A DNA stretch of 32,000 nt. Origin: an uncultured Alphaproteobacteria bacterium (GTDB lineage: Bacteria > Pseudomonadota > Alphaproteobacteria > Rs-D84 > CACZYB01). Every line of letters starts with the position of its first letter. Within the stretch, counting starts at the first letter, position 1. Below the pieces are notes generated by a model, which saw nothing but the letters and a program-made list of their open reading frames with translations, had not been told where the DNA came from and ran no database searches. This document shows positions 7,167-32,000 of the stretch, piece by piece. The stretch is from assembly GCA_934246625.1 (NCBI GenBank), contig CAKQHZ010000001.1, positions 210,001 through 242,000 of the forward strand. Direction: 5' to 3'. A program made the position numbers and the translations under genes.

Positions 7167-8096
7167 ATGGAAAATTCTGTTATAAAAAATTTACCAAAAG
7201 TAAAAGGTGAATTATTAGAAAATTATAATCTTGCTAATTTTACCAGATTTAAGACTGGTGGAATTGCCGAAGTTTTTTTTACTCCTAAGGATAAAAAAGA
7301 TTTGATGGATTTCTTAAAACATGCTCCTAAGGATATGTATATTCATACTCTTGGTTTTGGTTCAAATCTTCTTATTCGTGATGGTGTATTAAATGGAATT
7401 ACAATAAGACTTCAATCTGATGCCTTTAATTCTATTGAAATTGATGAAAGTGATGATTGCAAAATTATTTGTGGCGCATTTGCTTCAAATATTGCAATTT
7501 CTAAATTTGCGATGGAACATTCCATTGCTGGATTTGAATTTTTGTTTGGAATTCCTGGTTCTATTGGTGGTGCAGTCATTACTAATGCTGGTTGTTTTAA
7601 ACAAGAAATAAAAGATATTTTGGTTGAAATAGAAGTTGTAAATAAATTGACAGGAAAGGTTAAAACTATCCCTGCTTCTGATTGCGGATTGGTTTATCGT
7701 GATTCTTCAATTAAACCTAAATACATAATTACTTCTGTTGTATTAAAGGGTAAAAAGGGAGATAGCAAAAAAATCCAAGAAACTATGGATAACATACTTA
7801 AGGAAAAGGATTCTGTTCAACCTACATATACAAAGACTGCGGGTTCTACATTTAAAAATCCTGTGGGACATTCTGCATGGAAACTTATCAAAGATGCAGG
7901 TTGTCAAGGTATGAAATATGGTGATGCAATCGTTTCTCCTATGCATGCAAACTTTATCATCAATGAAGGAAATGCAACTTCTGCGGATATTGAAGAATTG
8001 GCGGAACAAGTCAGATATAAAGTTTATGAAAAATTTGGAATAATGCTTGAATATGAAATAAAAATCATTGGTTCAAGGAAAGTTGAAAACCCTTAA
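7167..8096 (+). CDS. murB: UDP-N-acetylenolpyruvoylglucosamine reductase
   Basis: FAD-binding PCMH-type N-terminus (FKTGGIAEVFF, LGFGSNLL), GIPGSIGGAV, and GSTFKNP in the C-terminal domain. I prefer the ATG at 7167, just after the murC stop, over the TTG at 7149. Confidence 0.88.
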   Translation: MENSVIKNLPKVKGELLENYNLANFTRFKTGGIAEVFFTPKDKKDLMDFLKHAPKDMYIHTLGFGSNLLIRDGVLNGITIRLQSDAFNSIEIDESDDCKIICGAFASNIAISKFAMEHSIAGFEFLFGIPGSIGGAVITNAGCFKQEIKDILVEIEVVNKLTGKVKTIPASDCGLVYRDSSIKPKYIITSVVLKGKKGDSKKIQETMDNILKEKDSVQPTYTKTAGSTFKNPVGHSAWKLIKDAGCQGMKYGDAIVSPMHANFIINEGNATSADIEELAEQVRYKVYEKFGIMLEYEIKIIGSRKVENP

Positions 8097-12517: not shown

Positions 12518-13132
12518 TTACAATCCCAATTTTTCATTTAAAATTTTCATTATACGATTGCTTACATCTTCTATACTGCCTTCTGATGGCATAAGAACAC
12601 ATCTTGATGGGTTAAGTTTTGCAACTTCACGAAATCCATTTAATGCCTTTGTAAGCCACTCATTACCCATTTTTTCGAATCGATTTATTTCTGTAAGGTT
12701 GCCATGTGATTTTGATGGATCAATATCAAAAATAATTGTTAAATTTGGTTTAAAATCACCTATTGCAAGATGATATAATTGTTCCATTTTTTCAATGCCT
12801 AAACCATGAGCATATCCTTGATACGCATTTGTTGTATCCATATATCTATCACAAATTACAATATTACCAGCATCGACATTTGGCTTTATCACATTTTCAT
12901 AATGATCACGGCGAACAGCAGTAAAAAGCAATGCTTCGGTTTCAGGAGACATTTTATTGACCTCTCCTTTTAAAAGAATTTCACGAATCTTTTCACCAAG
13001 CATTGTGCCACCAGGTTCACGAGTTGTAATTACATTATAACCTTTTTGTTTTAATTTTTCGGAAATAATTTTGGCTTGGGTTGTTTTACCAACACCTTCA
13101 CCACCTTCAAAAGTTATAAATAATCCCTTCAT
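12518..13132 (-). CDS. tmk: Thymidylate kinase
   Basis: FITFEGGEGVGKTTQ P-loop, TREPGGT, and the DRY motif (CDRYMDTTNAYQG). Confidence 0.93.
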   Translation of the reverse strand: MKGLFITFEGGEGVGKTTQAKIISEKLKQKGYNVITTREPGGTMLGEKIREILLKGEVNKMSPETEALLFTAVRRDHYENVIKPNVDAGNIVICDRYMDTTNAYQGYAHGLGIEKMEQLYHLAIGDFKPNLTIIFDIDPSKSHGNLTEINRFEKMGNEWLTKALNGFREVAKLNPSRCVLMPSEGSIEDVSNRIMKILNEKLGL

Positions 13133-13133
13133 A

Positions 13134-14303
13134 TTACCCCACTATGTTTAAAATTATTTGTTTTAAGTTTTTGAAAATTCTTACCATAAAATTACATTTT
13201 TTAACATCTTCAAGTGTGATTAAGTCATATTCACCAGTTTTTACACCATCAACATAAAGTGTTAATGTTCCAACTTTTGTATCCTTTACAACAGGAGCAG
13301 GAACTGGACTTTCAAACGTAGCACGCAATTCAACATTTGGTGTTGAACCATTTTCAGCAGTAATTAAAATTTTTTCATCAACACCAACTGGAACTGTGCT
13401 TTTTGCACCAAACCATACTGGCACATCAAAAACTTTATCACCACGTTTATAATATACGAAGTTTGAAAATTCCTTAAATCCCCATTCTAACAAAGCCTTA
13501 GAATCTGTAAATCTAGCATAGCTTGGATTTGTTCCCTTTATACCATTTACAATGGCAACTAAACGTCTTTGTCCTTTTTTTGCAGAAGATGATAAACCAT
13601 AACCACCCTTTGTTGTATGACCTGTTTTAAGTCCATCAGCAGATGGCATAATCCAAAGAAGTTTATTTCTGTTGTCTTTGTTTCCTGTTAAATCCTTTTT
13701 ATATAAAAATTCTTTTTCACCAAAGTAATGATAAAATTCAGGGAAATCCTTTATAATACGGCGGGAAAGGATAACCAAATCTTTTGTTGACATAAGGTGA
13801 TTTTTATCATACCAACCAGAAGCATTTTTTATTGATGAGTTGTTAAGTCCCAATTTTTCACAAAGTGCAGTTAACTCCCTTACAAAATTATCCTCACTTC
13901 CACTTATGTTTTCGGCAATTACTATTGTTGCATCATTACCACTGTTAACAATAATTCCACGAATCAAATCTTCAAGACGAACTTTTTCATTATATTCAAG
14001 AAACATTGTTGAGCCAGAGTTTGCATTCATTGCCTTTGCCTTTTTCCATGCTTCTGGACCAACGACAAATTCACTATCCAAAGAATATTTACCATCTTTG
14101 ATTAGTTCAAATACCTTATATACAGTTAAAAGTTTGCTCATAGAAGAAGGAGGAACCATAACATCAGCATTTTTTTCATATAAAATTTTACCACTATCAA
14201 AATCCATAAGTATTGCATGTGGTGCACGCAAATCAGGTGTTGCAGATTTTGCAGTCAAAGAAAATACAAATGATAATAACAATAATAAGATAGATTTTTT
14301 CAC
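13134..14303 (-). CDS. D-alanyl-D-alanine carboxypeptidase (PBP5/6 family, peptidase S11)
   Basis: Signal peptide, then the SxxK (SMSK), SxN (SGN) and KTG (LKTGHT) motifs, plus a C-terminal PBP5_C-like beta domain. Confidence 0.88.
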   Translation of the reverse strand: MKKSILLLLLSFVFSLTAKSATPDLRAPHAILMDFDSGKILYEKNADVMVPPSSMSKLLTVYKVFELIKDGKYSLDSEFVVGPEAWKKAKAMNANSGSTMFLEYNEKVRLEDLIRGIIVNSGNDATIVIAENISGSEDNFVRELTALCEKLGLNNSSIKNASGWYDKNHLMSTKDLVILSRRIIKDFPEFYHYFGEKEFLYKKDLTGNKDNRNKLLWIMPSADGLKTGHTTKGGYGLSSSAKKGQRRLVAIVNGIKGTNPSYARFTDSKALLEWGFKEFSNFVYYKRGDKVFDVPVWFGAKSTVPVGVDEKILITAENGSTPNVELRATFESPVPAPVVKDTKVGTLTLYVDGVKTGEYDLITLEDVKKCNFMVRIFKNLKQIILNIVG

Positions 14304-14444
14304 TTTTTACTCCTTTTATTTCTATTCTTTATAATTATTACTAAAATTATAAAACAATAGCAATCATAAATTTAAAAATTTAATCTTGCTATTAGGAAAA
14401 AATTTGTTAAAATGGGCTATTATAAATTCAAATAGAGTATTTTT

Positions 14445-15638
14445 ATGACAGAAGAAGCTAAATATAAAGTATTGGCACGCAAATATAGACCTAGCACACT
14501 TGATGAACTTATAGGTCAAGATGTATTGGTTAAAACTTTGACTAATGCAATTAAGACTAATAGACTTGCTCATGCTTATATATTTACTGGTATTCGTGGC
14601 GTTGGTAAAACTTCAACCGCAAGAATTTTTGCAAAATCATTAAATTGCATTGGTGCCGATGGAAAGGCTACTGGTCCACAAGTAAAGCCTTGTGGTGTTT
14701 GTGAACATTGTCGTGCAATCGCAGAAGATAGACATATTGATGTTATTGAAATGGACGCGGCTTCACGAACTGGTGTTGATGATATTCGCGAAATTATTGA
14801 CGGCGTGCAATACAAACCTTCATCTGCAAGATACAAAGTTTATATCATCGATGAAGTTCACATGTTGTCAAAGAATGCCTTTAATGCACTTCTTAAAACA
14901 TTGGAAGAGCCTCCTCCTTATGCAAAATTTATTTTTGCAACAACTGAAATTCGAAAGGTTCCTGCGACTGTGTTATCTCGTTGTCAAAGATTTGATTTAC
15001 CACGTGTGGATTTAGAAACTCTTTCAAAGCATTTCAAGCATATTTGCGAATTGGAAAATGTTAAAATTGATGATGACTCTATTAACATTATTGCAAAAAC
15101 TGCAGATGGTTCTGTGCGTGATGGTATGAGTTTTTTAGATCAGGTCATTTCAAATTGCGAAGGGGATATTACATCAGAAAAGGTTTCAAAAATTTTGGGA
15201 TTGGCTGGTAAAGGTGTTGTATTCGATTTATACGATTCTATTATGAGTGGGAATATTGAAAAATCAGTTGAAATAATTGATAATCAATATAATTTAGGGG
15301 TTGACCCTGTGTTGATTTTAACTGATTTGTTGGAAATCACCCATTATATTACAAGGGTGAAAATTACACCAAAGGCTGTATCATTACTCCCTATTACACC
15401 AGCGGAACAAGAAAAGGTTTCAAAACTTGCAAATGATTTAAGCATTGCAACTCTTTCTCGTGTTTGGCAAATGCTTCTTAAGGGATTTGATGAACTTTCT
15501 CGTGTGCCAAATGTGCTTTCTGCGGTGGAAATGATTATTATTCGACTTTCTTATGTCGGTATGATGCCAAGTCCAGCGGAAATCCTTAACAAGATAGAAA
15601 ATCAAACTTCTTCTGAAGTTCAAAAAAAAAATATCTAG
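14445..15638 (+). CDS. dnaX: DNA polymerase III gamma/tau subunit, as encoded in the 0 frame (gamma-sized, 397 aa)
   Basis: YRPSTLDELIGQD, P-loop GIRGVGKTSTARI, a Zn module (CGVCEHC), IIDEVHMLS, and sensor SRCQRF. The frame ends Q-K-K-N-I-stop immediately after an A10 run. Confidence 0.9.
   Translation: MTEEAKYKVLARKYRPSTLDELIGQDVLVKTLTNAIKTNRLAHAYIFTGIRGVGKTSTARIFAKSLNCIGADGKATGPQVKPCGVCEHCRAIAEDRHIDVIEMDAASRTGVDDIREIIDGVQYKPSSARYKVYIIDEVHMLSKNAFNALLKTLEEPPPYAKFIFATTEIRKVPATVLSRCQRFDLPRVDLETLSKHFKHICELENVKIDDDSINIIAKTADGSVRDGMSFLDQVISNCEGDITSEKVSKILGLAGKGVVFDLYDSIMSGNIEKSVEIIDNQYNLGVDPVLILTDLLEITHYITRVKITPKAVSLLPITPAEQEKVSKLANDLSIATLSRVWQMLLKGFDELSRVPNVLSAVEMIIIRLSYVGMMPSPAEILNKIENQTSSEVQKKNI
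15622..15631 (+). other. A10 homopolymer at the dnaX frame junction (candidate slippage site)
   Basis: Ten consecutive A at 15622-15631. The 0 frame stops at 15636-15638. The +1 frame is open from 15598 to 16044. Confidence 0.5.
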
Positions 15639-16044
15639 CTTAATAAACGAATCTCCATTATTCGAAGAAAATAATGCGTTGACCGAAGTATCAACTCTTT
15701 CAATCGAAAGCATTGTCGAAATATTAAGAGAAAAGAAAAAATATCTTTTGTCCCAAGATGTTGAAAAGTATGTAAGATTTGTGTCATTTGAAAATGGAAC
15801 TCTTTTTATAAATTTTGATACAGGATATCCACGTGAACTTTTGAAAAACCTTAACGACTTTTTCATTATGGCAAAGTATAATATAAAGGTTGAACATTCA
15901 AATCAGGCTGGCGAAGATACTATTTATAAGAAAAAACAAGATATATTTAATTCTCAGCTTAAGGAAATTTCCACAAACCCAATTTTAAAAGAAGTTTTAC
16001 ATAGTTTTAAAAATTCTTATGTTGCAAAAATCGAAGAATTATAG
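15632..16044 (+). CDS. dnaX: DnaX tau-specific C-terminal segment in the +1 frame relative to dnaX
   Basis: The +1 frame reads ...KKKISSLINESPLFEENNALTEVSTLSIESIVEILREKKKYLLSQDVEKYVRFVSFENGTLFINFDTGYP... This matches the conserved C-terminal region of alphaproteobacterial DnaX (...V.LV.FE.G.L.I.L..GAP...). The listed TTG start at 15679 has no convincing RBS. Confidence 0.6.
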
Positions 16045-16087
16045 TATCCTTTTATTTATTAGTTAATAATAAAAAGAGGAGAATACA

Positions 16088-16411
16088 ATGGTTAACTTAA
16101 ACGAATTAGTAGCTCAAGCTCAAGCAATGCAAAACAAAGTAAAACTTGCTCAAGCAGAACTTGCAAAACAAGAAGTTATTGGTAAAGCTGGTGGTGGATT
16201 GGTAAAAATTACTATGACTTGCACAAAAGAAGCAAGAAAAGCTGAAATCGATGCTTCTTTGTTAAAAGAAAGCGAAAAGGAAACATTAGAAGATTTAATC
16301 GTTGCTGCAATGAATAATGCAAAAGAACAAGCAGATGAAATTTCAACTGCAACTATGGAAGAAGCAACATCAGGACTTCAACTTCCAGAAGGTGTTGATT
16401 TACCTATGTAA
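16088..16411 (+). CDS. ybaB: Nucleoid-associated protein YbaB/EbfC
   Basis: 107 aa with a conserved architecture (MQNKV..AQ.EL...EV.G.AGGGLVKITMT...IDASLL...E.LEDLIVAA.N.A). Strong RBS AGAGGAG. Canonical position after dnaX. Confidence 0.92.
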   Translation: MVNLNELVAQAQAMQNKVKLAQAELAKQEVIGKAGGGLVKITMTCTKEARKAEIDASLLKESEKETLEDLIVAAMNNAKEQADEISTATMEEATSGLQLPEGVDLPM

Positions 16412-16420
16412 TATTTATAA

Positions 16421-16462
16421 AAAAATTAAATCCCCCTTGGCAAAACCTTGGGGGATTTTTTG
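16421..16462. terminator. Bidirectional intrinsic terminator between ybaB and the convergent small ORF
   Basis: AATCCCCC (16429-16436) pairs with GGGGGATT (16450-16457), and inner GG/CC pairs are possible. A T6 run follows on the + strand and a T-rich run on the - strand. Confidence 0.5.
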
Positions 16463-16472
16463 TTGGCTGATG

Positions 16473-16772
16473 TTATTTAATTTTATAAAGTTTTGCACAA
16501 TGAGAGCAAAGTTTATCATTAAATTTATCAGTATTGGATTTAACATTTGTTTTTCCATTTCCTGGGTGACGAAGATAAACCGTTTGATAGCTTGGATTAC
16601 CATATATATCTGTTTTATTTAGTTTATATTCTTGGAGTGGAGTTTCACAAATTTCAGAAAGTTCATTGAATTTTGCACGCAATTCATCACCTGTTCCGTA
16701 TGCATTACTTATTTCTTCACCTTCGGAGCAACCACCACCCTGAAAAATACATTTTGAATCAGTTTGATACAA
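16473..16772 (-). CDS. Hypothetical Cys-containing protein; probably the 3' part of a longer, frame-disrupted gene
   Basis: 99-aa ORF with a TTG start and no RBS. The same frame stays open upstream to 16844, and a further 47-codon ORF (16799-16942) lies in another frame. I recognised no family. Confidence 0.35.
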   Translation of the reverse strand: MYQTDSKCIFQGGGCSEGEEISNAYGTGDELRAKFNELSEICETPLQEYKLNKTDIYGNPSYQTVYLRHPGNGKTNVKSNTDKFNDKLCSHCAKLYKIK

Positions 16773-17000
16773 ATCTTTTACAGATGAACAGAAACCTCCT
16801 ACACCACCATAATAATTTTTTGTGCCAGCATGGGTAAAGATACGTCAAAGACTTTCCAACCACGCGAAGAGGATTTTATCACTGCACAAAGTTGAATTGG
16901 CAGTGCATTGTACATTAGGACTTTAGACAGTCCTATACCCATCTCTGGATCTGGTTTTATAATAAAATAATTTTGATTGTTTATAAAGCAAATTCTTTAC

Positions 17001-17029
17001 TTGCATTTGTTTTGTTTATTTTGTAATAT
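17001..17029 (+). promoter_or_regulatory. Sigma70-like promoter of tyrS (TTGCAT-N17-TAATAT, TG-extended)
   Basis: TTGCAT at 17001-17006 and TAATAT at 17024-17029; TG at 17022-17023. It lies 28 nt upstream of the tyrS ATG. Confidence 0.4.
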
Positions 17030-17056
17030 TTTTTCAATATAAATAAAGGTGAAAAA

Positions 17057-18286
17057 ATGTATAAAGTAAAATCAGATTTTTTAAATATTATTCAGGAACG
17101 TGGTCTTTTTAATCAAGCAAGTGATTTGGAAGGTTTGGATAAAAAACTTTTAAGTGGTTCTGTTATTGGTTATTTGGGTGCGGACCCTACCGCTGATAGT
17201 TTGCATATTGGAAATTTGGTTTCACTTACCCTTCTTCGACTTTTTCAAAAAACTGGAAATAAGCCTATTGCTCTTATCGGTGGGGCAACAGGAAGAATTG
17301 GTGATCCATCTGGCCGTTCAAGTGAACGTCCAATGATGACTGATGAAATTTTTACAAAAAATATGGCTGGAATAAAAAAATCTATGGAAAAATTCTTTTC
17401 CTTTGGTGATGGAAAAACCGATGCAATTATGGTGAATAATTATGATTGGTTTAAGGATATTTCTTATATTGATTTTTTAACAAAGTTTGGTCGTTATTTT
17501 TCTGTAAATGAAATGCTTAAACGTGAAAGTGTTAAACTTCGTTTAGATAGAGAACAACCTTTATCATTTTTGGAATTTAATTATTCTTTGTTCCAAGCAT
17601 ACGACTTTGTTGAAATAAATAAACGTTATGGAGCTGTGCTTCAATTCGGTGGTGCTGATCAATGGGGAAACATTGTTTCTGGTGTTGATTTGGGAAGACG
17701 TTTAGGTGTGGAACTTTATGCCTTGACTGCTCCTTTGTTGACTGATGCCAATGGTGTAAAGTTTGGAAAGTCAATGGGAAATGCTGTATGGCTTAATGAA
17801 GATAAACTTTCTGCTTATGATTATTACCAATTCTGGCGAAATGTTGATGATAGAGATGTTTCAAAATTGCTTCGCATATTTACAGAACTCCCTATTTCCG
17901 AAATTGAAAAACTTGAAAAACTTCAAGGGGCAGAAATCAATGAAGCAAAGAAAATTCTTGCTTTTGAAGCAACAAAAATTTGTCGTGGTGAAGATGCTGC
18001 AAAAACAGCCGAAGCAACTGCAAAAGAAACTTTTGAAAATGGTGGTATGGGAAAGGATTTGCCAACATTTGAATTGACATCTGAAATGAATATTCTTGAT
18101 GTATTAACATATACTTCACTTTGCAAATCAAAAAGTGATGCAAGACGTATGATTGTTGGTGGTGCAGTAAGTGTTAATGATGAAAAAATTTCTGATGATA
18201 AAAAGGTAATTGATGAAACCTTTGCAAAAGATGGAAAAATACTTATTTCTTGTGGAAAGAAAAATAAGGCAATATTAAAAATTTAA
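17057..18286 (+). CDS. tyrS: Tyrosine--tRNA ligase
   Basis: HIGH motif (ADSLHIGNL), KMSKS variant (KFGKS), GGADQWGN, and a C-terminal S4-like domain (SKSDARRMIVGGAVSVN). Confidence 0.93.
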   Translation: MYKVKSDFLNIIQERGLFNQASDLEGLDKKLLSGSVIGYLGADPTADSLHIGNLVSLTLLRLFQKTGNKPIALIGGATGRIGDPSGRSSERPMMTDEIFTKNMAGIKKSMEKFFSFGDGKTDAIMVNNYDWFKDISYIDFLTKFGRYFSVNEMLKRESVKLRLDREQPLSFLEFNYSLFQAYDFVEINKRYGAVLQFGGADQWGNIVSGVDLGRRLGVELYALTAPLLTDANGVKFGKSMGNAVWLNEDKLSAYDYYQFWRNVDDRDVSKLLRIFTELPISEIEKLEKLQGAEINEAKKILAFEATKICRGEDAAKTAEATAKETFENGGMGKDLPTFELTSEMNILDVLTYTSLCKSKSDARRMIVGGAVSVNDEKISDDKKVIDETFAKDGKILISCGKKNKAILKI

Positions 18287-19260
18287 AATAATATTTCAGA
18301 TAATATTTTTTCATTATCAAATTTTACCTCTATATCAATAGGGGTAATTTTTTTGCGAACATCATTTGGCAATTTCACATAATCTTTCATAGTAGTAAGT
18401 AAAGGAAGTCCCTTTAACTTTGAAAGGTTAAGCAAAGTTTCAATATCGCTTTGTGTATAAGCATAATGATCAGGAAAACTAACTTTATCCACAACGTTGA
18501 TATTATTATCAGTTAAGGTTTTATAAAATTTTTCAGGTTTGCCAATACCTGCAAATGCAATTACCTCCTTACCAATAAAATTTTTCACACTATCGGTTGG
18601 AGCGGTAATTCCATTTATAACTGGAACACCATTTAATTTAAGGGTTGTTTCTAATAATGGATTTGGCTTTCTCATTATAATTGCAAGATTTACCCCCTTT
18701 AACCCAGATTTTAAACTTTGGCGAAGGGGACCTGCTGGAAAAATATAGCCATTAGAAAGACCAGACACACCATCAAAGACACAAATCTTTATATCCTTTG
18801 CCAATTTATAGTTTTGGAAACCATCGTCCATTATTATAACATCAACCTTATTTTCAAGAAATTTGGCACCATTTGCCCTGTTTTTACAAACACATACTGG
18901 AACATTTTTATATTTTGTTGCAATTAAATATGGTTCATCACCAACATCAATACTCGTATGTTTTTTCGTATCAATTAAAAATGGAATATCAGATGAAAGT
19001 TTGCTTCCATAACCACGGGATAAGACACCAACTTTTATATTTTTTTTCAAAAAAAGCTCTATTAACTTTATAACGACTGGCGTTTTGCCAACACCACCAA
19101 GAACGATATTACCAACACAAATAACCTTTGCCTTTGATTTATATGTTTTGGTTGTAAGTTGATTTAATTTATCCCCCAATTTATAAAGCAATGAAAAAGG
19201 CAATAAAAATGTTGATATTCCCCACTTTTTATAAAAATATTTTGGTTCTTGTAGTTTCAT
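18283..19260 (-). CDS. lpxK: Tetraacyldisaccharide 4'-kinase (lipid A biosynthesis)
   Basis: VICVGNIVLGGVGKTPVV P-loop, SRGYG, GDEP and DDGFQN motifs. Confidence 0.88.
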   Translation of the reverse strand: MKLQEPKYFYKKWGISTFLLPFSLLYKLGDKLNQLTTKTYKSKAKVICVGNIVLGGVGKTPVVIKLIELFLKKNIKVGVLSRGYGSKLSSDIPFLIDTKKHTSIDVGDEPYLIATKYKNVPVCVCKNRANGAKFLENKVDVIIMDDGFQNYKLAKDIKICVFDGVSGLSNGYIFPAGPLRQSLKSGLKGVNLAIIMRKPNPLLETTLKLNGVPVINGITAPTDSVKNFIGKEVIAFAGIGKPEKFYKTLTDNNINVVDKVSFPDHYAYTQSDIETLLNLSKLKGLPLLTTMKDYVKLPNDVRKKITPIDIEVKFDNEKILSEILF

Positions 19261-19322
19261 TTTTCCCTTGTCTTAAATTTTCTATATTATATAATATATT
19301 AAAAATAAAGGCAAAGCAAATT

Positions 19323-19718
19323 ATGACTATTGATGATTTAATTTCAAATTTTAATATGATAGATGATTGGAATGATAAATATTCCTATCTGATTGAACTT
19401 GGTCGTGAAATTACTCCTTTCCCATCTGAAGAAAGGATTGAAGAAAACAGAATTTATGGTTGTTCTGCATCTGTATGGTGGAAATATAAAATTGATGAAA
19501 ATAGCAAATATTCTTTTCTTTTTGACAGTGATGCGTTGATTGTAAAGGGACTTTTGTATATTTTAATGGTGATTTTTAATCAAAAGAATATATCTGAAAT
19601 ACAAAATATAAATGTGTTTGAATTATTTAATAAAATGGGATTATCTGAACATCTTTCAAATCAAAGACAAGTTGGAATTTCATCTGTGATTGCCAAAATA
19701 CAAAACTTGGGGAAATAA
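19323..19718 (+). CDS. sufE: SufE/CsdE-family cysteine desulfuration (sulfur acceptor) protein
   Basis: From the ATG at 19323: MTIDDLISNFNMIDDWNDKYSYLIELG..., with the conserved acceptor Cys in YGCSASVWW and SDALIVKGL. The listed 19191 start would overlap lpxK. Confidence 0.8.
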   Translation: MTIDDLISNFNMIDDWNDKYSYLIELGREITPFPSEERIEENRIYGCSASVWWKYKIDENSKYSFLFDSDALIVKGLLYILMVIFNQKNISEIQNINVFELFNKMGLSEHLSNQRQVGISSVIAKIQNLGK

Positions 19719-19768
19719 ATCATTAAATATTTGATTTTTTTTAAAAGTTATTATAAAATAGGTCTATT

Positions 19769-21190
19769 ATGACAATAAATAATGCAAAAAAACATATTAA
19801 AAAGTATATAAAGAAACCTCATTTTCAGGTGTTTGCTATCAGTTTTTCTTTATGTATTTTATTTTTCTTTATTATTTCTAAACAATCAGGAAGTAATATC
19901 GCTCCTGTGAAGGAAGTGGACTTTCCATTAATGGAAAATCAAATTATCGGCACATCTTCTAACCCTATTCCAAAGCGTATCAATAATTTTTTTGATGATA
20001 TGTTTAGTGGGGTGAAGGAACATACCTTGGAAGTAAAAAGTGGTGATTCAATAGCTTCTATGCTTTCATCTTTTGGAATTTGTTATAGTGAGATTTTAGC
20101 AGTAAGCAAGGCTATTGACCCTATTTCAAAAACTTCTGAATTAAAACCTGATAATGACAAAATCGTGATAAAATTAAAACCTATTCCAAACCAAGATGGA
20201 AAGGTAAAGGCTGAACTTCGTTCTTTGGAAATTATCAAAAGCCCAATTTACAAAATTCGTGCGGAAAAAACCGCAGATGGATTCAGAACTGTTGAGGAAA
20301 AATCTGATATAACATCTGAACTTATTAGAAAAGAAGGCGAAATTTTAAAAGGAACTGGACTTATTGAGGCTGCATTGGCTCAAGGTATTCCTTATAACAT
20401 CATTGATAAATTTTATGAAATATTTTCTTTTGATGTGGATTTTGAACGTGATATTTACCCTGGTGATAAATTCCAAATTATGTATGAAAATCTTTATTCT
20501 GATAATGGGGATTATATAGGAAATGGTGATGTGATTTTTGCTTCTCTTTACCTTAATTCACGACAACAGGATTTCAAACTTTATCGTTATGAAAATGAAA
20601 ATGGTTTTGTTGCATATTATGATGAAAATGGTAAAAGTGCCTCAAAAACTCTTAAAAAATCTCCTATTAACGGAGCAAGAATTTCATCAAAATATGGTAA
20701 AAGAAAGCACCCTATCCTTGGATATTCTCGTGCACATCAGGGAATTGACTTTGCCGCACCAAGTGGAACTCCTATCCCCGCAGCAGGAAGTGGTAAGGTT
20801 GTTTTCAAAGGTTGGAGAAATGGCTATGGTAATTATATTAAAATAAAGCATAATGGCACTTACTCCACTGCTTATGGTCATATGAAGGGTTTTAAATCTG
20901 GAATAAATGTAGGTAGCCAAATTGCTCAAGGTCAAATAATTGGGTATGTTGGTTCAACTGGACTTTCTACTGGCCCACATTTGCACTATGAAATTATAAA
21001 GGATAATGTTCACGTTAATCCATTGACTGTGAAACTTCCATCTATAAAAAATATTACAAAGGCAGAACTTAAAAAATTTACAACCAACAGGGATAAAATA
21101 AATATTCAATTTGCTGTGTTGGATAAAAATTTCTCTCAATTTGCAAACTTAATCAATGTAAATAATATTGAACCAGTTGCATCAAAGTAA
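19769..21190 (+). CDS. M23-family (LytM-type) peptidoglycan endopeptidase with an N-terminal membrane anchor
   Basis: N-terminal TM helix and an OapA/LysM-like segment (LEVKSGDSIASML). The C-terminal M23 domain carries HQGIDFAAPSGTPI and GSTGLSTGPHLHYEI. Confidence 0.85.
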   Translation: MTINNAKKHIKKYIKKPHFQVFAISFSLCILFFFIISKQSGSNIAPVKEVDFPLMENQIIGTSSNPIPKRINNFFDDMFSGVKEHTLEVKSGDSIASMLSSFGICYSEILAVSKAIDPISKTSELKPDNDKIVIKLKPIPNQDGKVKAELRSLEIIKSPIYKIRAEKTADGFRTVEEKSDITSELIRKEGEILKGTGLIEAALAQGIPYNIIDKFYEIFSFDVDFERDIYPGDKFQIMYENLYSDNGDYIGNGDVIFASLYLNSRQQDFKLYRYENENGFVAYYDENGKSASKTLKKSPINGARISSKYGKRKHPILGYSRAHQGIDFAAPSGTPIPAAGSGKVVFKGWRNGYGNYIKIKHNGTYSTAYGHMKGFKSGINVGSQIAQGQIIGYVGSTGLSTGPHLHYEIIKDNVHVNPLTVKLPSIKNITKAELKKFTTNRDKINIQFAVLDKNFSQFANLINVNNIEPVASK

Positions 21191-30460: not shown

Positions 30461-30573
30461 AATAGGCTTTATGCTATCAAATAGGATTTTTTATTTCAAG
30501 CAATATTATAAAAAGTTTTTCTCTTTTACAAGAAAAAATCAATGATATTTTATATTTGGCTACACGACAAAGA

Positions 30574-30790
30574 CTTAATGTATTTGATATTGGTGATAAA
30601 ACGCATATGCAAAATATTTCAAAGGTCAAAGTTATTTAAATGTTGCAAATGTTAGCTTTGAACCAAAGTCCAGAAATAATTGGCATATCCATCACAAGGG
30701 TGGACAAATCTTGCTTATTACTGGTAGAAATGGATATTACCAAGAATGGGGAAAGCCTGCTGTAAAATTAAAAAAGGGAGTTACCTCCCT
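30574..30790 (+). pseudogene. Cupin-domain gene remnant (frameshifted, 3'-truncated, no start codon)
   Basis: Frame 1 reads LNVFDIGDK. After an apparent 1-nt loss in the A-run at 30598-30601, the frame starting at 30600 reads NAYAKYFKGQSYLNVANVSFEPKSRNNWHIHHKGGQILLITGRNGYYQEWGKPAVKLKKG. This is the conserved core of small cupin_2 proteins. The expected GDVV.IP..V.HWHGA continuation is missing, and the sequence becomes CRISPR repeat instead. Confidence 0.5.
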
Positions 30791-30922
30791 TGCGTATAAT
30801 TAACAATATATATGGGGTGTGGGAAAGTAACACTTAAAAAAGGGAGTTACCTCCCTGTATTCACAGGCACCCTTTCAACAATAGGAGGGAAAGTAACACT
30901 TAAAAAAGGGAGTTACCTCCCT
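30755..30922. CRISPR. Mini-CRISPR array: 2 identical 36-nt repeats plus 1 degenerate repeat, with 2 spacers of 30 nt
   Basis: The repeat GGGAAAGTAACACTTAAAAAAGGGAGTTACCTCCCT occurs at 30821-30856 and 30887-30922. A degenerate copy ends at 30790, with its last 23 nt identical. Spacer 1 (30791-30820) is TGCGTATAATTAACAATATATATGGGGTGT. Spacer 2 (30857-30886) is GTATTCACAGGCACCCTTTCAACAATAGGA. The period is exactly 66 nt. Orientation is unresolved, but the degenerate repeat lies distal to the adjacent HEPN ORF, which favours minus-strand transcription. Confidence 0.7.
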
Positions 30923-31020
30923 ATTAGAAGAAAAATATCCCTAATAATGTGTATTTCCACATAAATCATATTAAAAATTTTAAGAATTTCTAATACTTAC
31001 TTTTCATTATATTGCCGTTT

Positions 31021-32000
31021 TTATTTTTTACAATAATTTTCTTTTTTTGCATCTTCTGTAATTTCTTTTAATTTTATTTTCAAATCTTTATACATTTTAA
31101 AAACTATAACTTTAGTTTTTTTTAAATTTTTGTTTGGATTTTCATTAATATCTAAAATTATACTTTTAATTTTTTCTTTAAATCGTTTATGAACTGACAA
31201 AGATTTATCATTTGAAATTTTTATCGTTAAAATTTCTTTTTTAACTTTATCTTGTTTTTTATGTTTTTCAAATTCTGTTAAAAGTATTATATTATCTTTC
31301 TTTAAAAATAATGACATTAATGCTTTTAATAAATTTATTTTTAATTCTTTTGCGTTTTCAAAATTATTATCAAAAAAATCTAAAATTAACAGCAAATTGC
31401 TTCTAAATGTATCAAAAAATGACTTCGTAGCATCACTTTCGTTATAAAAAAATATTTTACCATGACTAATTTGATTTCTGATTTTTGTAATTTTTTCAGG
31501 AATAGATCTACACTTTATGTTTTCATAATTATAAACAAAATGTTTTTGTAGTATTTCACTTATTTTTATAAATAACATAAAAATTTTTTCTTTTTCTTCT
31601 AGATAAAATAATTTACGATATTGTGAATATTTTTTCTTTCCTAATAATGTTTTTAATATACTATCAATTTTATTTAAATTATATGAATTTATAAAATTTT
31701 GGCGTTCCAAACAATTAGATATTTTAATAGATTGTAAACTTTTTAAAAGCATACGATTGTCTTTTATTAAATCAATTTCTTTTTTATTATAATGATTTTC
31801 AAAAATAGTTTTTACATTTTTACTTTTTGTAGATAAAACAGATTTGAATAAATCTTCAATATTATAATCAAATTTTCCGTTATTTTTTTCACGTTCAAAC
31901 AATAATTTAATATCATTAATATAAACATTAGGAAGAAATAAAAACAAATTTTTTAAAGATTCTTCAACATTTAGTTCCTTCTCAATTCCAGAAACTGTAA
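31021..32000 (-). CDS. C-terminal >=326 aa of a large HEPN-motif protein (candidate Cas13-like effector or CRISPR-associated HEPN RNase); 5' end lies off-window
   Basis: The frame is open from the window edge (…TVSGIEKELNVEESLKNLFLFLPNVY…), so the listed TTG at 31947 is not the true start. It contains ITKIRNQISHGKIF, an R-N-x-x-x-H HEPN catalytic motif, about 150 aa from the C-terminus. It is Lys/Asn/Ile-rich and predicted helical, and it lies 98 bp from the CRISPR array. Confidence 0.55.
   Translation of the reverse strand, partial: TVSGIEKELNVEESLKNLFLFLPNVYINDIKLLFEREKNNGKFDYNIEDLFKSVLSTKSKNVKTIFENHYNKKEIDLIKDNRMLLKSLQSIKISNCLERQNFINSYNLNKIDSILKTLLGKKKYSQYRKLFYLEEKEKIFMLFIKISEILQKHFVYNYENIKCRSIPEKITKIRNQISHGKIFFYNESDATKSFFDTFRSNLLLILDFFDNNFENAKELKINLLKALMSLFLKKDNIILLTEFEKHKKQDKVKKEILTIKISNDKSLSVHKRFKEKIKSIILDINENPNKNLKKTKVIVFKMYKDLKIKLKEITEDAKKENYCKK

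Follow-up and report, generated by a model that had tools for sequence, protein, structure and literature searches.

The 3′ end of a probable minimal type VI CRISPR-Cas locus, distantly related to Cas13an, in an uncultured alphaproteobacterium

What kind of system do a few direct repeats represent, when they lie beside the cut-off end of a gene for an HEPN protein and no other cas gene is in view? The question is raised by the right-hand end of a 32,000-nucleotide (nt) stretch of contig CAKQHZ010000001.1 from an uncultured alphaproteobacterium; this whole stretch is called the window below. An initial annotation, made from the letters alone, took the repeats and the adjacent open reading frame (ORF) for a type VI-like, HEPN-based CRISPR locus without adaptation genes. 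Our analysis agrees with it. The complete relatives of the gene encode two RxxxxH motifs and are homologous to Cas13an, and an array with 36-nt repeats and 30-nt spacers (a 36/30 array) is present in every locus examined. We put the probability at about 85% that what the window contains is the 3′ end of a Cas13an-type locus, a minimal type VI CRISPR-Cas system.

The effector gene, its family and the array

The gene lies on the minus strand (31021–32000). Its stop codon (31021–31023) is 98 nt from the first repeat and its frame stays open to 31998 at the window edge (325 codons and the stop), as first annotated, and the IRNQISHG sequence with its R-N-x3-H motif, originally placed about 150 amino acids (AAs) from the C-terminus, is in fact 151 AAs from it. 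A search of 5.8 billion proteins with this partial ORF found three relatives only, of 464, 469 and 468 AAs, with 98, 85 and 63% identity. Full-length orthologues (P0001–P0003) have just 464–469 AAs, so the ORF does not deserve the epithet "large" that it had been given; about two thirds of a 464-AA gene (codons 140–464 and the stop) is visible in the window, and this part is 98% identical to P0001. Each full-length polypeptide has two HEPN RxxxxH motifs, RHYFEH (residues 125–130) and RNQISH (residues 313–318), and the single-HEPN protein that the initial annotation had set against its own reading thus did not appear. Only the second motif (HEPN2, R313–H318 in full-length numbering) falls inside the window, where it is read directly at 31462–31479 on the minus strand and aligns with IRNxIAH of Cas13an.

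Searched exhaustively with HMMER, 1.84 billion cluster representatives yielded 10 proteins (nine full-length, 464–599 AAs, and one 48-AA fragment), and a word-index search added a further family member, P0013, of 568 AAs. Two members are present in NCBI, as a "hypothetical protein" of a Rickettsiales metagenome-assembled genome (MAG) and of an Alphaproteobacteria MAG. Among 11 family members R125, H130 and H318 never vary, and R313 hardly does. In P0008 (locus L034) SNNISHS stands in place of (L/I)RNxISH, so that the HEPN2 arginine is absent, and a 5-repeat array is still present there. Pfam, NCBIfam, PADLOC and PDB-sequence searches with the partial ORF, a full orthologue and the family profile gave nothing meaningful. 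The profile searches proposed at the outset thus returned neither a known Cas13 subtype nor a CARF/HEPN match from NCBIfam, PADLOC or Pfam, and the Pfam matches of the effector include no CARF domain and no Abi family. The three close orthologues had no match among GTDB species representatives, the divergence of the family alignment precluded a genome scan, and a degenerate repeat pattern had no match in JGI metagenomes. The structural comparison that had also been proposed succeeded in part: an AlphaFold2 model built from the 11-sequence alignment is good and all-helical (predicted local distance difference test, pLDDT, 80.9; predicted template modelling score 0.83), but Foldseek found nothing significant for it in the PDB, the top, non-significant match being Cas13d. 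A 3-sequence alignment gave a pLDDT of 52 and a model too poor for use.

Cas13an proteins have 429–577 AAs and two HEPN domains, their loci are without other cas genes, and an array with 36-nt repeats and 30-nt spacers lies immediately downstream (PMC12165695, Science 2024); previously characterized Cas13 orthologues typically have 800–1400 AAs (PMC12165695). The 2025 CRISPR-Cas classification has a "Cas13e", subtype VI-E (PMC12669027), which is probably the same as Cas13an, and we call the window gene cas13an/cas13e-like. For comparison we used the first 400 residues of Cas13an1–13 (Table S3 of PMC12165695). Pairwise BLAST of P0003 with Cas13an8 gave a weak but colinear match (20% identity over 291 AAs, 40 bits). 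In hhalign three family members matched Cas13an at 96.1% (E = 3e-9) and 11 members at 98.3% (E = 1.4e-14, 315 colinear columns), in a register that includes both catalytic motifs, LFLFLP matching LGLLLLP, FIGxxN and several blocks. Against the 13 published Cas13an proteins the family hidden Markov model scored best with Cas13an8 (41.7 bits) and gave 33.2 bits with Cas13an4; the identity between family and Cas13an is about 17–21%. By these alignments the family is homologous to Cas13an, though distant. Two Cas13an-like proteins of a 2025 preprint are 32–50% identical to Cas13an2 and so represent a different branch from the window family, which is, to judge from these searches, a rare, previously unannotated clade distinct from published Cas13an. 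The earlier suggestion of a divergent or undescribed effector is therefore right as to a distinct, divergent clade, but the Cas13an family itself had already been described in 2024.

The likeness to Cas13an extends from the single small effector (464 AAs for the window gene when intact, 464–599 in the wider family) to the types of motif (RHYFEH here, RHYLEH or RNYLEH there; IRNQISHG here, IRNQIAHGG there) and the downstream same-strand 36/30 array, in loci that lack cas1, cas2 and any further cas gene. The repeats, too, are like the canonical ones in their U-rich centre and 3′ half (…ATTTTTA-GG..TCTATRAC). The two differ in that here the 5′ arm of the repeat is replaced by a self-contained 6-bp tetraloop hairpin, the leader has one matching 5′ arm, preceded by a TTATGT motif, terminal repeats end after the U-run, the hosts (where named) are AT-rich Rickettsiales or Alphaproteobacteria MAGs, and the window copy is probably interrupted.

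The window array has two identical 36-nt repeats, at plus-strand positions 30821–30856 and 30887–30922 (copies 66 nt apart), and two spacers of exactly 30 nt that are mutually unrelated and each unique within the window. Direct inspection and shuffling here bear out the initial annotation; the 36-mer pattern (≤3 mismatches) matches twice in the window versus 0.00 times expected from 100 shuffles. On the minus strand, that of the gene, the order is repeat 1 (30887–30922, AGGGAGGTAACTCCCTTTTTTAAGTGTTACTTTCCC), spacer 1 (30857–30886, TCCTATTGTTGAAAGGGTGCCTGTGAATAC), repeat 2 (30821–30856, the same sequence as repeat 1) and spacer 2 (30791–30820, ACACCCCATATATATTGTTAATTATACGCA). There is also a third copy (30755–30790, 72% identical to the 36-mer), as had been stated, but "degenerate" is not the right word for it: on the gene strand its first 23 nt (30790–30768, AGGGAGGTAACTCCCTTTTTTAA) are identical to the repeat, while the last 13 bear no relation to it. 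The copy is a terminal repeat cut short (30768–30790), consisting only of the hairpin GGGAG-GTAA-CTCCC and a T-run, and is terminator-like. Three related loci (L002, L032 and L035) show the same truncation of their terminal repeats. An Rfam scan found nothing at the gathering threshold, and a permissive scan found only a sub-threshold CRISPR-DR34 on the minus strand (16.9 bits, cut-off 35). No self-targets of spacers were found in any fetched locus.

Downstream DNA could be read at 11 distinct loci, and at each of them a 36/30 array closely follows the stop codon on the gene strand, with no other cas gene. Besides the window these are L001 (2 repeats), L002 (3 repeats, decayed, in L002 to L005), L006 (at least 3 repeats, running off the contig), L007 (8 repeats), L009 (3), L010 (5), L014 (at least 2), L032 (3), L034 (5) and L035 (2); L012 has 1 repeat at the contig end. 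The neighbourhoods of these loci are mutually unrelated and often mobile- or defence-island-like (for example, an integrase at L006 and OLD/AriA-like and DUF2130 genes at L001), and gene-array linkage across such unrelated surroundings rules out chance repeats. Two arrays have peculiarities of their own. The decayed array of L002 (11209–11360), that of the 63%-identical orthologue, has unequal repeats with spacings of 60 and 65 nt. At L007 the first spacer occurs twice, the second time beyond the last repeat, where the contig ends (3996–4025 and 4458–4487), which is probably an assembly wrap-around within the array.

Might the gene instead encode an Abi- or toxin-type HEPN RNase that happens to adjoin repeated terminator hairpins or REP-like (repetitive extragenic palindromic) elements? 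Every repeat does have a hairpin and T-run, the window array is very short and has no protospacers in the searches given below, and the HEPN domains of Cas13an group with those of AbiD/F, their proposed closest non-CRISPR relatives (PMC12165695). AbiD/F RNases also share with our loci a defence-island-like setting (OLD/AriA-like, PLD, AAA_13 and KAP NTPase neighbours in L001 and L002). But they have a single HEPN domain, form homodimers and have no CRISPR array, whereas here two HEPN motifs are present in one chain that is homologous to validated Cas13an and has no Abi family among its Pfam matches. Moreover, the exact 66-nt period of 36 conserved and 30 unique nt is found in 11 loci with up to 8 units, the repeat sequence varies between loci while the architecture is kept, and spacer content differs between 98%-identical loci. 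We consider it highly improbable that the locus is not CRISPR.

Another HEPN CRISPR family, that is Cas13a–d, Cas13bt/X or the Csm6/Csx1 of a type III system beyond the window, might be thought of because an RNxxxH-G motif and a 36/30 array are common to several type VI subtypes, and Cas13d headed the non-significant Foldseek matches. The 464-AA protein falls well short of the 800–1400 AAs of earlier Cas13, however, and it has no NCBIfam, PADLOC, Pfam or PDB-sequence match. The Csm6/Csx1-like alternative of the initial annotation must be given up, as there are two HEPN motifs, no CARF match and no type III genes in the window or in 6 kb upstream at L001. An assignment to any of these families is barely credible. 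Among them, Cas13b (including Cas13bt/Cas13X, subtype VI-B) shares with our loci the 36-nt repeat and 30-nt spacer, the frequent lack of adaptation genes and a crRNA (CRISPR RNA) whose spacer is 5′ of the repeat (PMC12165695). It is unlike them in being far larger and in processing its crRNA at a separate site, and it has no sequence or Foldseek match to the window family. Compact Cas13b forms have about 775 AAs.

In Cas13an the crRNA is a single molecule of about 60 nt with the spacer 5′ of the repeat, and one HEPN site serves both target cleavage and pre-crRNA trimming (PMC12165695). From its homology to characterized Cas13an, the window family most likely acts in a similar manner. The array would be transcribed from a leader promoter in the gene's direction to give a pre-crRNA, and the guide would consist of a spacer followed by a repeat-derived handle that the effector binds. 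Pairing of the spacer with a complementary transcript would join the two HEPN motifs (R125/H130 and R313/H318) into one active site, and this composite site would cleave the target RNA and probably bystander RNA as well, and would also trim the pre-crRNA. That the array is transcribed, that the crRNA has this orientation and that the protein is a nuclease we infer.

Several observations weigh against assigning the locus to a Cas13an-like system. The window array holds two spacers only. No protospacer was found for either of them in an exact search of IMG/VR, and 21 spacers from related arrays gave only chance-level matches to 50,697 cultured-phage records. No cas1 or cas2 gene is present within 30 kb on one side (the window) and 6 kb on the other (L001). 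Since the repeat is non-canonical, handle recognition may differ from that of Cas13an. Finally, the effector gene of this genome appears to be interrupted by a stop at codon 107, upstream of HEPN1 and beyond the window. The last two points are taken up in the following sections.

The repeat hairpin and the leader anti-repeat

Canonical Cas13an repeats form a single long hairpin with paired GTTG…GAC ends (PMC12165695); those of this family do not. Every repeat, read on the gene strand, has a 6-bp GC-rich tetraloop hairpin followed by (A)U4–6 and a tail of about 14 nt. Among 11 repeat types there are compensatory changes at 5 of the 6 stem pairs, and 98.5% of cells are paired; none of 500 shuffles matches the observed score, and slid registers collapse. 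The loops on this strand are GTAA, GCAA, GAAA, GAGA, GCGA, TTCG and CTTG, which we take to be tetraloops of the GNRA, UUCG and CUUG types, as their complements would not be. Because these types are readable only on the gene strand, the RNA would be read in the gene's direction, as in published Cas13an crRNAs; the tetraloops and the G-U pairs described below both fit this strand and argue that it is the transcribed one. Fold prediction for the repeat gives, at 6 of 8 loci, essentially the 5′ 6-bp hairpin followed by a tail that stays unpaired. For the window and L002 the prediction is a fold of the whole repeat, with no covariation in comparison with L006, and the long hairpin so predicted for the window repeat (GGTAAC with GTTAC) was rejected since L006 breaks its pairing and keeps the small hairpin.

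The leader between the stop codon and repeat 1 has 98 nt (30923–31020, minus strand), and its last 55 or so nt are conserved among the window, L001, L006 and L002, that is, down to 63% protein identity. It contains a promoter-like site, TAGAAA, 16 nt, TATGAT (30965–30992, minus strand), whose hexamers are kept in L001, L002 and L006; the number of such sites is not above chance in AT-rich DNA, and all promoter- and terminator-like sites given here are consensus matches only. The putative transcription start would be at about 30957–30959, the first base of an arm that belongs to the most unusual part of the leader, a TTATGT motif (30959–30964) and an anti-repeat (together 30928–30964, minus strand). 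The sequence that follows TTAT is complementary to the repeat: the repeat's 3′ end is the partner of the 5′ arm, GGAAATACAC, and what is left of the repeat pairs with the rest of the element. RNAduplex predicts 26 pairs at −20.2 kcal/mol for the window leader and repeat, versus −10.6 ± 2.8 when the leader is shuffled (none of 200 shuffles as low), and there is an excess over shuffles in L006, L002 and L014 as well as in L007 (−40.0 versus −16.3 ± 3.0 kcal/mol). All four G-U pairs of the window duplex have their U in the leader, as do all but one across the window, L006, L002, L014 and L007; the opposite strand pairs somewhat less well in most loci, the difference being small in several. Sliding-window duplex scans over whole loci were dropped because the repeats themselves confounded them.

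A TTATGT-like motif is present in 10 of 10 leaders, and in 8 of these it is 42–44 nt before repeat 1. In all ten loci the bases from +2 to about +13 after the motif pair with the last nucleotides of the cognate repeat, in about 7–17 pairs. Cognate arm-tail duplexes average −9.5 kcal/mol versus −4.5 ± 2.7 for non-cognate ones, and none of 20000 permutations is as good (p < 5e-5). At L007 the element is set back from repeat 1 by 186 nt, behind a TTGACA-17-TAGTAT site, and has a hairpin and T-run of its own on the downstream side. There the arm, U-run and tail (GTTTATAGATACCC + ATTTTTAA + GGGATCTATAAC) are much like one canonical repeat, that of Cas13an2 (GTTGTAGGCAGTCCCATTTTTAGGACTGTCTATGAC), and within the repeat …CCATTTTTAAGGGATCTATAAC resembles …CCCATTTTTAGGACTGTCTATGAC of Cas13an2, the U-rich centre and tail corresponding to the canonical loop and 3′ arm. 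As a control for such an arm in canonical leaders, a canonical Cas13an8 locus was sought in metagenomes, and none was found.

What might this element do? If the leader RNA, alone or as the 5′ end of the pre-crRNA, paired in trans with each repeat tail, it would rebuild the stem that canonical Cas13an repeats form within one repeat. The 5′ arm of the ancestral hairpin would then have moved from the repeats into a single, tracrRNA-like (trans-activating crRNA-like) leader RNA, and the guide would have two parts. The constant register of arm and tail and the preference for cognate pairing in the loci above, the leader-repeat duplexes of −20 to −40 kcal/mol (versus −11 to −16 for shuffled controls) in 5 loci, the resemblance of the assembled L007 parts to the Cas13an2 repeat, the distant, separately equipped element of L007 and the strand preference of the G-U pairs are all consistent with a split handle of this kind. 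On the other hand, the element abuts repeat 1 in 8 of the 10 loci, which makes a fold in cis at least as likely, and published Cas13an work with their single crRNA, with no mention of a tracrRNA or anti-repeat in the paper (PMC12165695). Such pairing would not be open to the last spacer, since truncated terminal repeats have no tail, and in L009, L010 and L012 the duplex energies of the whole leader do not exceed those of shuffled controls. We therefore propose the two-part guide tentatively and regard it as rather unlikely.

An action in cis only appears quite possible, though short of even odds. In one form of it the element would fold on repeat 1, which has no upstream spacer, and so block the formation of a guide-less or leader-guided complex; in another, included in the same estimate, it would set the array transcript's 5′ end, its stability or its read-through. 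The nearly fixed distance to repeat 1 in most loci and the putative transcription start at the first base of the arm fit such roles. In the minimum-energy folds of element and repeat 1, arm and repeat tail form the closing pairing at 8 of 9 loci, the exceptions named being the window and L035, and in L009, L010 and L034 the predicted closing stem of arm and tail encloses a leader hairpin and the repeat hairpin, which is thus kept inside. Each window repeat is in addition terminator-like (30768–30922, minus strand; 3 sites versus 0.3 expected). The arrangement at L007, a terminator-equipped element at a distance from repeat 1, does not fit a role in cis, nor does such a role give an evident need for family-wide covariation with the whole repeat tail. 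In all related arrays, too, the repeat is a GC hairpin with a T-run, which resembles an intrinsic terminator on the strand expected to be transcribed.

The 2025 classification lists tracrRNAs only for types II and V (PMC12669027). The class 2 systems that use them (Cas9 and several type V Cas12) have an array-adjacent non-coding element whose anti-repeat covaries with the repeat; the window family likewise has, in its sequence, an anti-repeat complementary to the repeat and encoded beside the array, and at L007 the anti-repeat is followed by its own terminator hairpin. The window-family element is unlike theirs in that it usually abuts repeat 1 on the same strand, and a separate RNA from it is hypothetical. 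Because the handle differs from that of published Cas13an, recognition may differ in detail as well, and so, possibly, may the number of RNA components.

State of the locus, its host and its surroundings

The 308-AA product of the window ORF (start TTG at 31947) is exactly P0014, which is recorded on 12 contigs. For what is apparently the same genome as P0014 and the window's TyrS, ABC-F and MurC, a 106-AA N-terminal fragment ending in …LKRNLFI (P0024) is also on record. None of the L001 codons between 107 and 156 is an ATG, GTG or TTG, so a single stop at codon 107 accounts for both the 106-AA and the 308-AA calls. The locus in this genome is thus probably a recently inactivated copy; the visible part of the gene differs from L001 at only 15 of 978 nt, with a ratio of nonsynonymous to synonymous rates (dN/dS) of 0.16, and with so few differences the break is probably recent. 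Sister strains have an intact 464-AA gene (P0001, P0015–17, P0019, P0021 and P0022), and the family, with dN/dS values of 0.16–0.27, is under purifying selection.

The window and L001 loci are 98–99% identical, but the window array has one extra leader-proximal unit, so that spacer 1 is not present in L001. Window spacer 2 and the only L001 spacer (7785–7814), both of 30 nt, are offset by 1 nt and have one C/T difference, which suggests independent acquisitions from one target rather than mutation. The effector gene has about 17.5% G+C versus 30.4% for the rest of the window, and among the P0001 cluster members listed none appears to come from a genome carrying variants of the window's housekeeping proteins. 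With the differences in neighbours from locus to locus, these features make the locus look like a horizontally moving accessory cassette. On the plus strand a frame-broken ORF remnant (30462–30767) enters the truncated terminal repeat (…LYLATRQRLNVFDIGDKTHMQN… / …NWHIHHKGGQILLITGRNGYYQEWGKPAVKL); the remnant, which is kept in L001 and matches no Pfam family, may be the gene into which the cassette inserted.

As had been noted of the visible side, no cas1-, cas2- or cas6-like gene is found among the other window ORFs scanned (about 30 kb), which are housekeeping genes or unrelated to cas: they comprise the dcw cluster, bamD, murJ, holB, tmk, dnaX, tyrS, lpxK, gap, recA, lexA and the ABC-F gene. 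At 14445–16044 dnaX is a 397-AA ORF followed by a separate 121-AA ORF with the gamma/tau C-terminal domain (DUF3646), so the gene is split, frameshifted or has an unusual inter-domain gap. The best match of the ABC-F protein, at 44% identity, is from Candidatus Arcanobacter lacustris, which we take to belong to the Rickettsiales, and the best-scoring NCBIfam models for holB and dnaX are presumably of alphaproteobacterial type. These matches and the MAG relatives named above are consistent with the alphaproteobacterial-type genome proposed initially, and ABC-F relatives of no more than 44% identity indicate a host without a close representative.

The surroundings of some related loci deserve brief mention. 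At L001 (1065–2863) an OLD/AriA/GajA-like ATPase-Toprim nuclease gene is split into ORFs of 230 and 325 AAs and is followed by DUF2130 and DUF3768 genes; this is a decaying defence island. HTH_17, resolvase, PLD, AAA_13, Hypoth_Ymh and KAP NTPase genes lie beside the L002 array (13014–21120). At L012 (496–2892) a 798-AA ankyrin-repeat protein is encoded near the P0005 orthologue, and this protein and the Rickettsiales-named relative hint that hosts of the clade may be intracellular bacteria.

What the locus adds to type VI CRISPR-Cas

Cas13an are the smallest known RNA-guided RNases, and they bear on the origin of type VI systems and on compact RNA-targeting tools. Only about 15 of them have been described, and the window locus reveals a separate clade that Pfam, NCBIfam and PADLOC models do not detect. 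If the two-part guide were real, type VI systems would have their first tracrRNA-like component, and it would give a snapshot of the interconversion between a one-piece crRNA handle and a split crRNA:tracrRNA handle; if the arm works in cis, it would be a new kind of leader-repeat control element. The system, a 464-AA protein and an RNA locus of about 200 nt, is small enough for testing. Finally, the locus places CRISPR-Cas in AT-rich Rickettsiales-like alphaproteobacteria, where to our knowledge such systems are uncommon.

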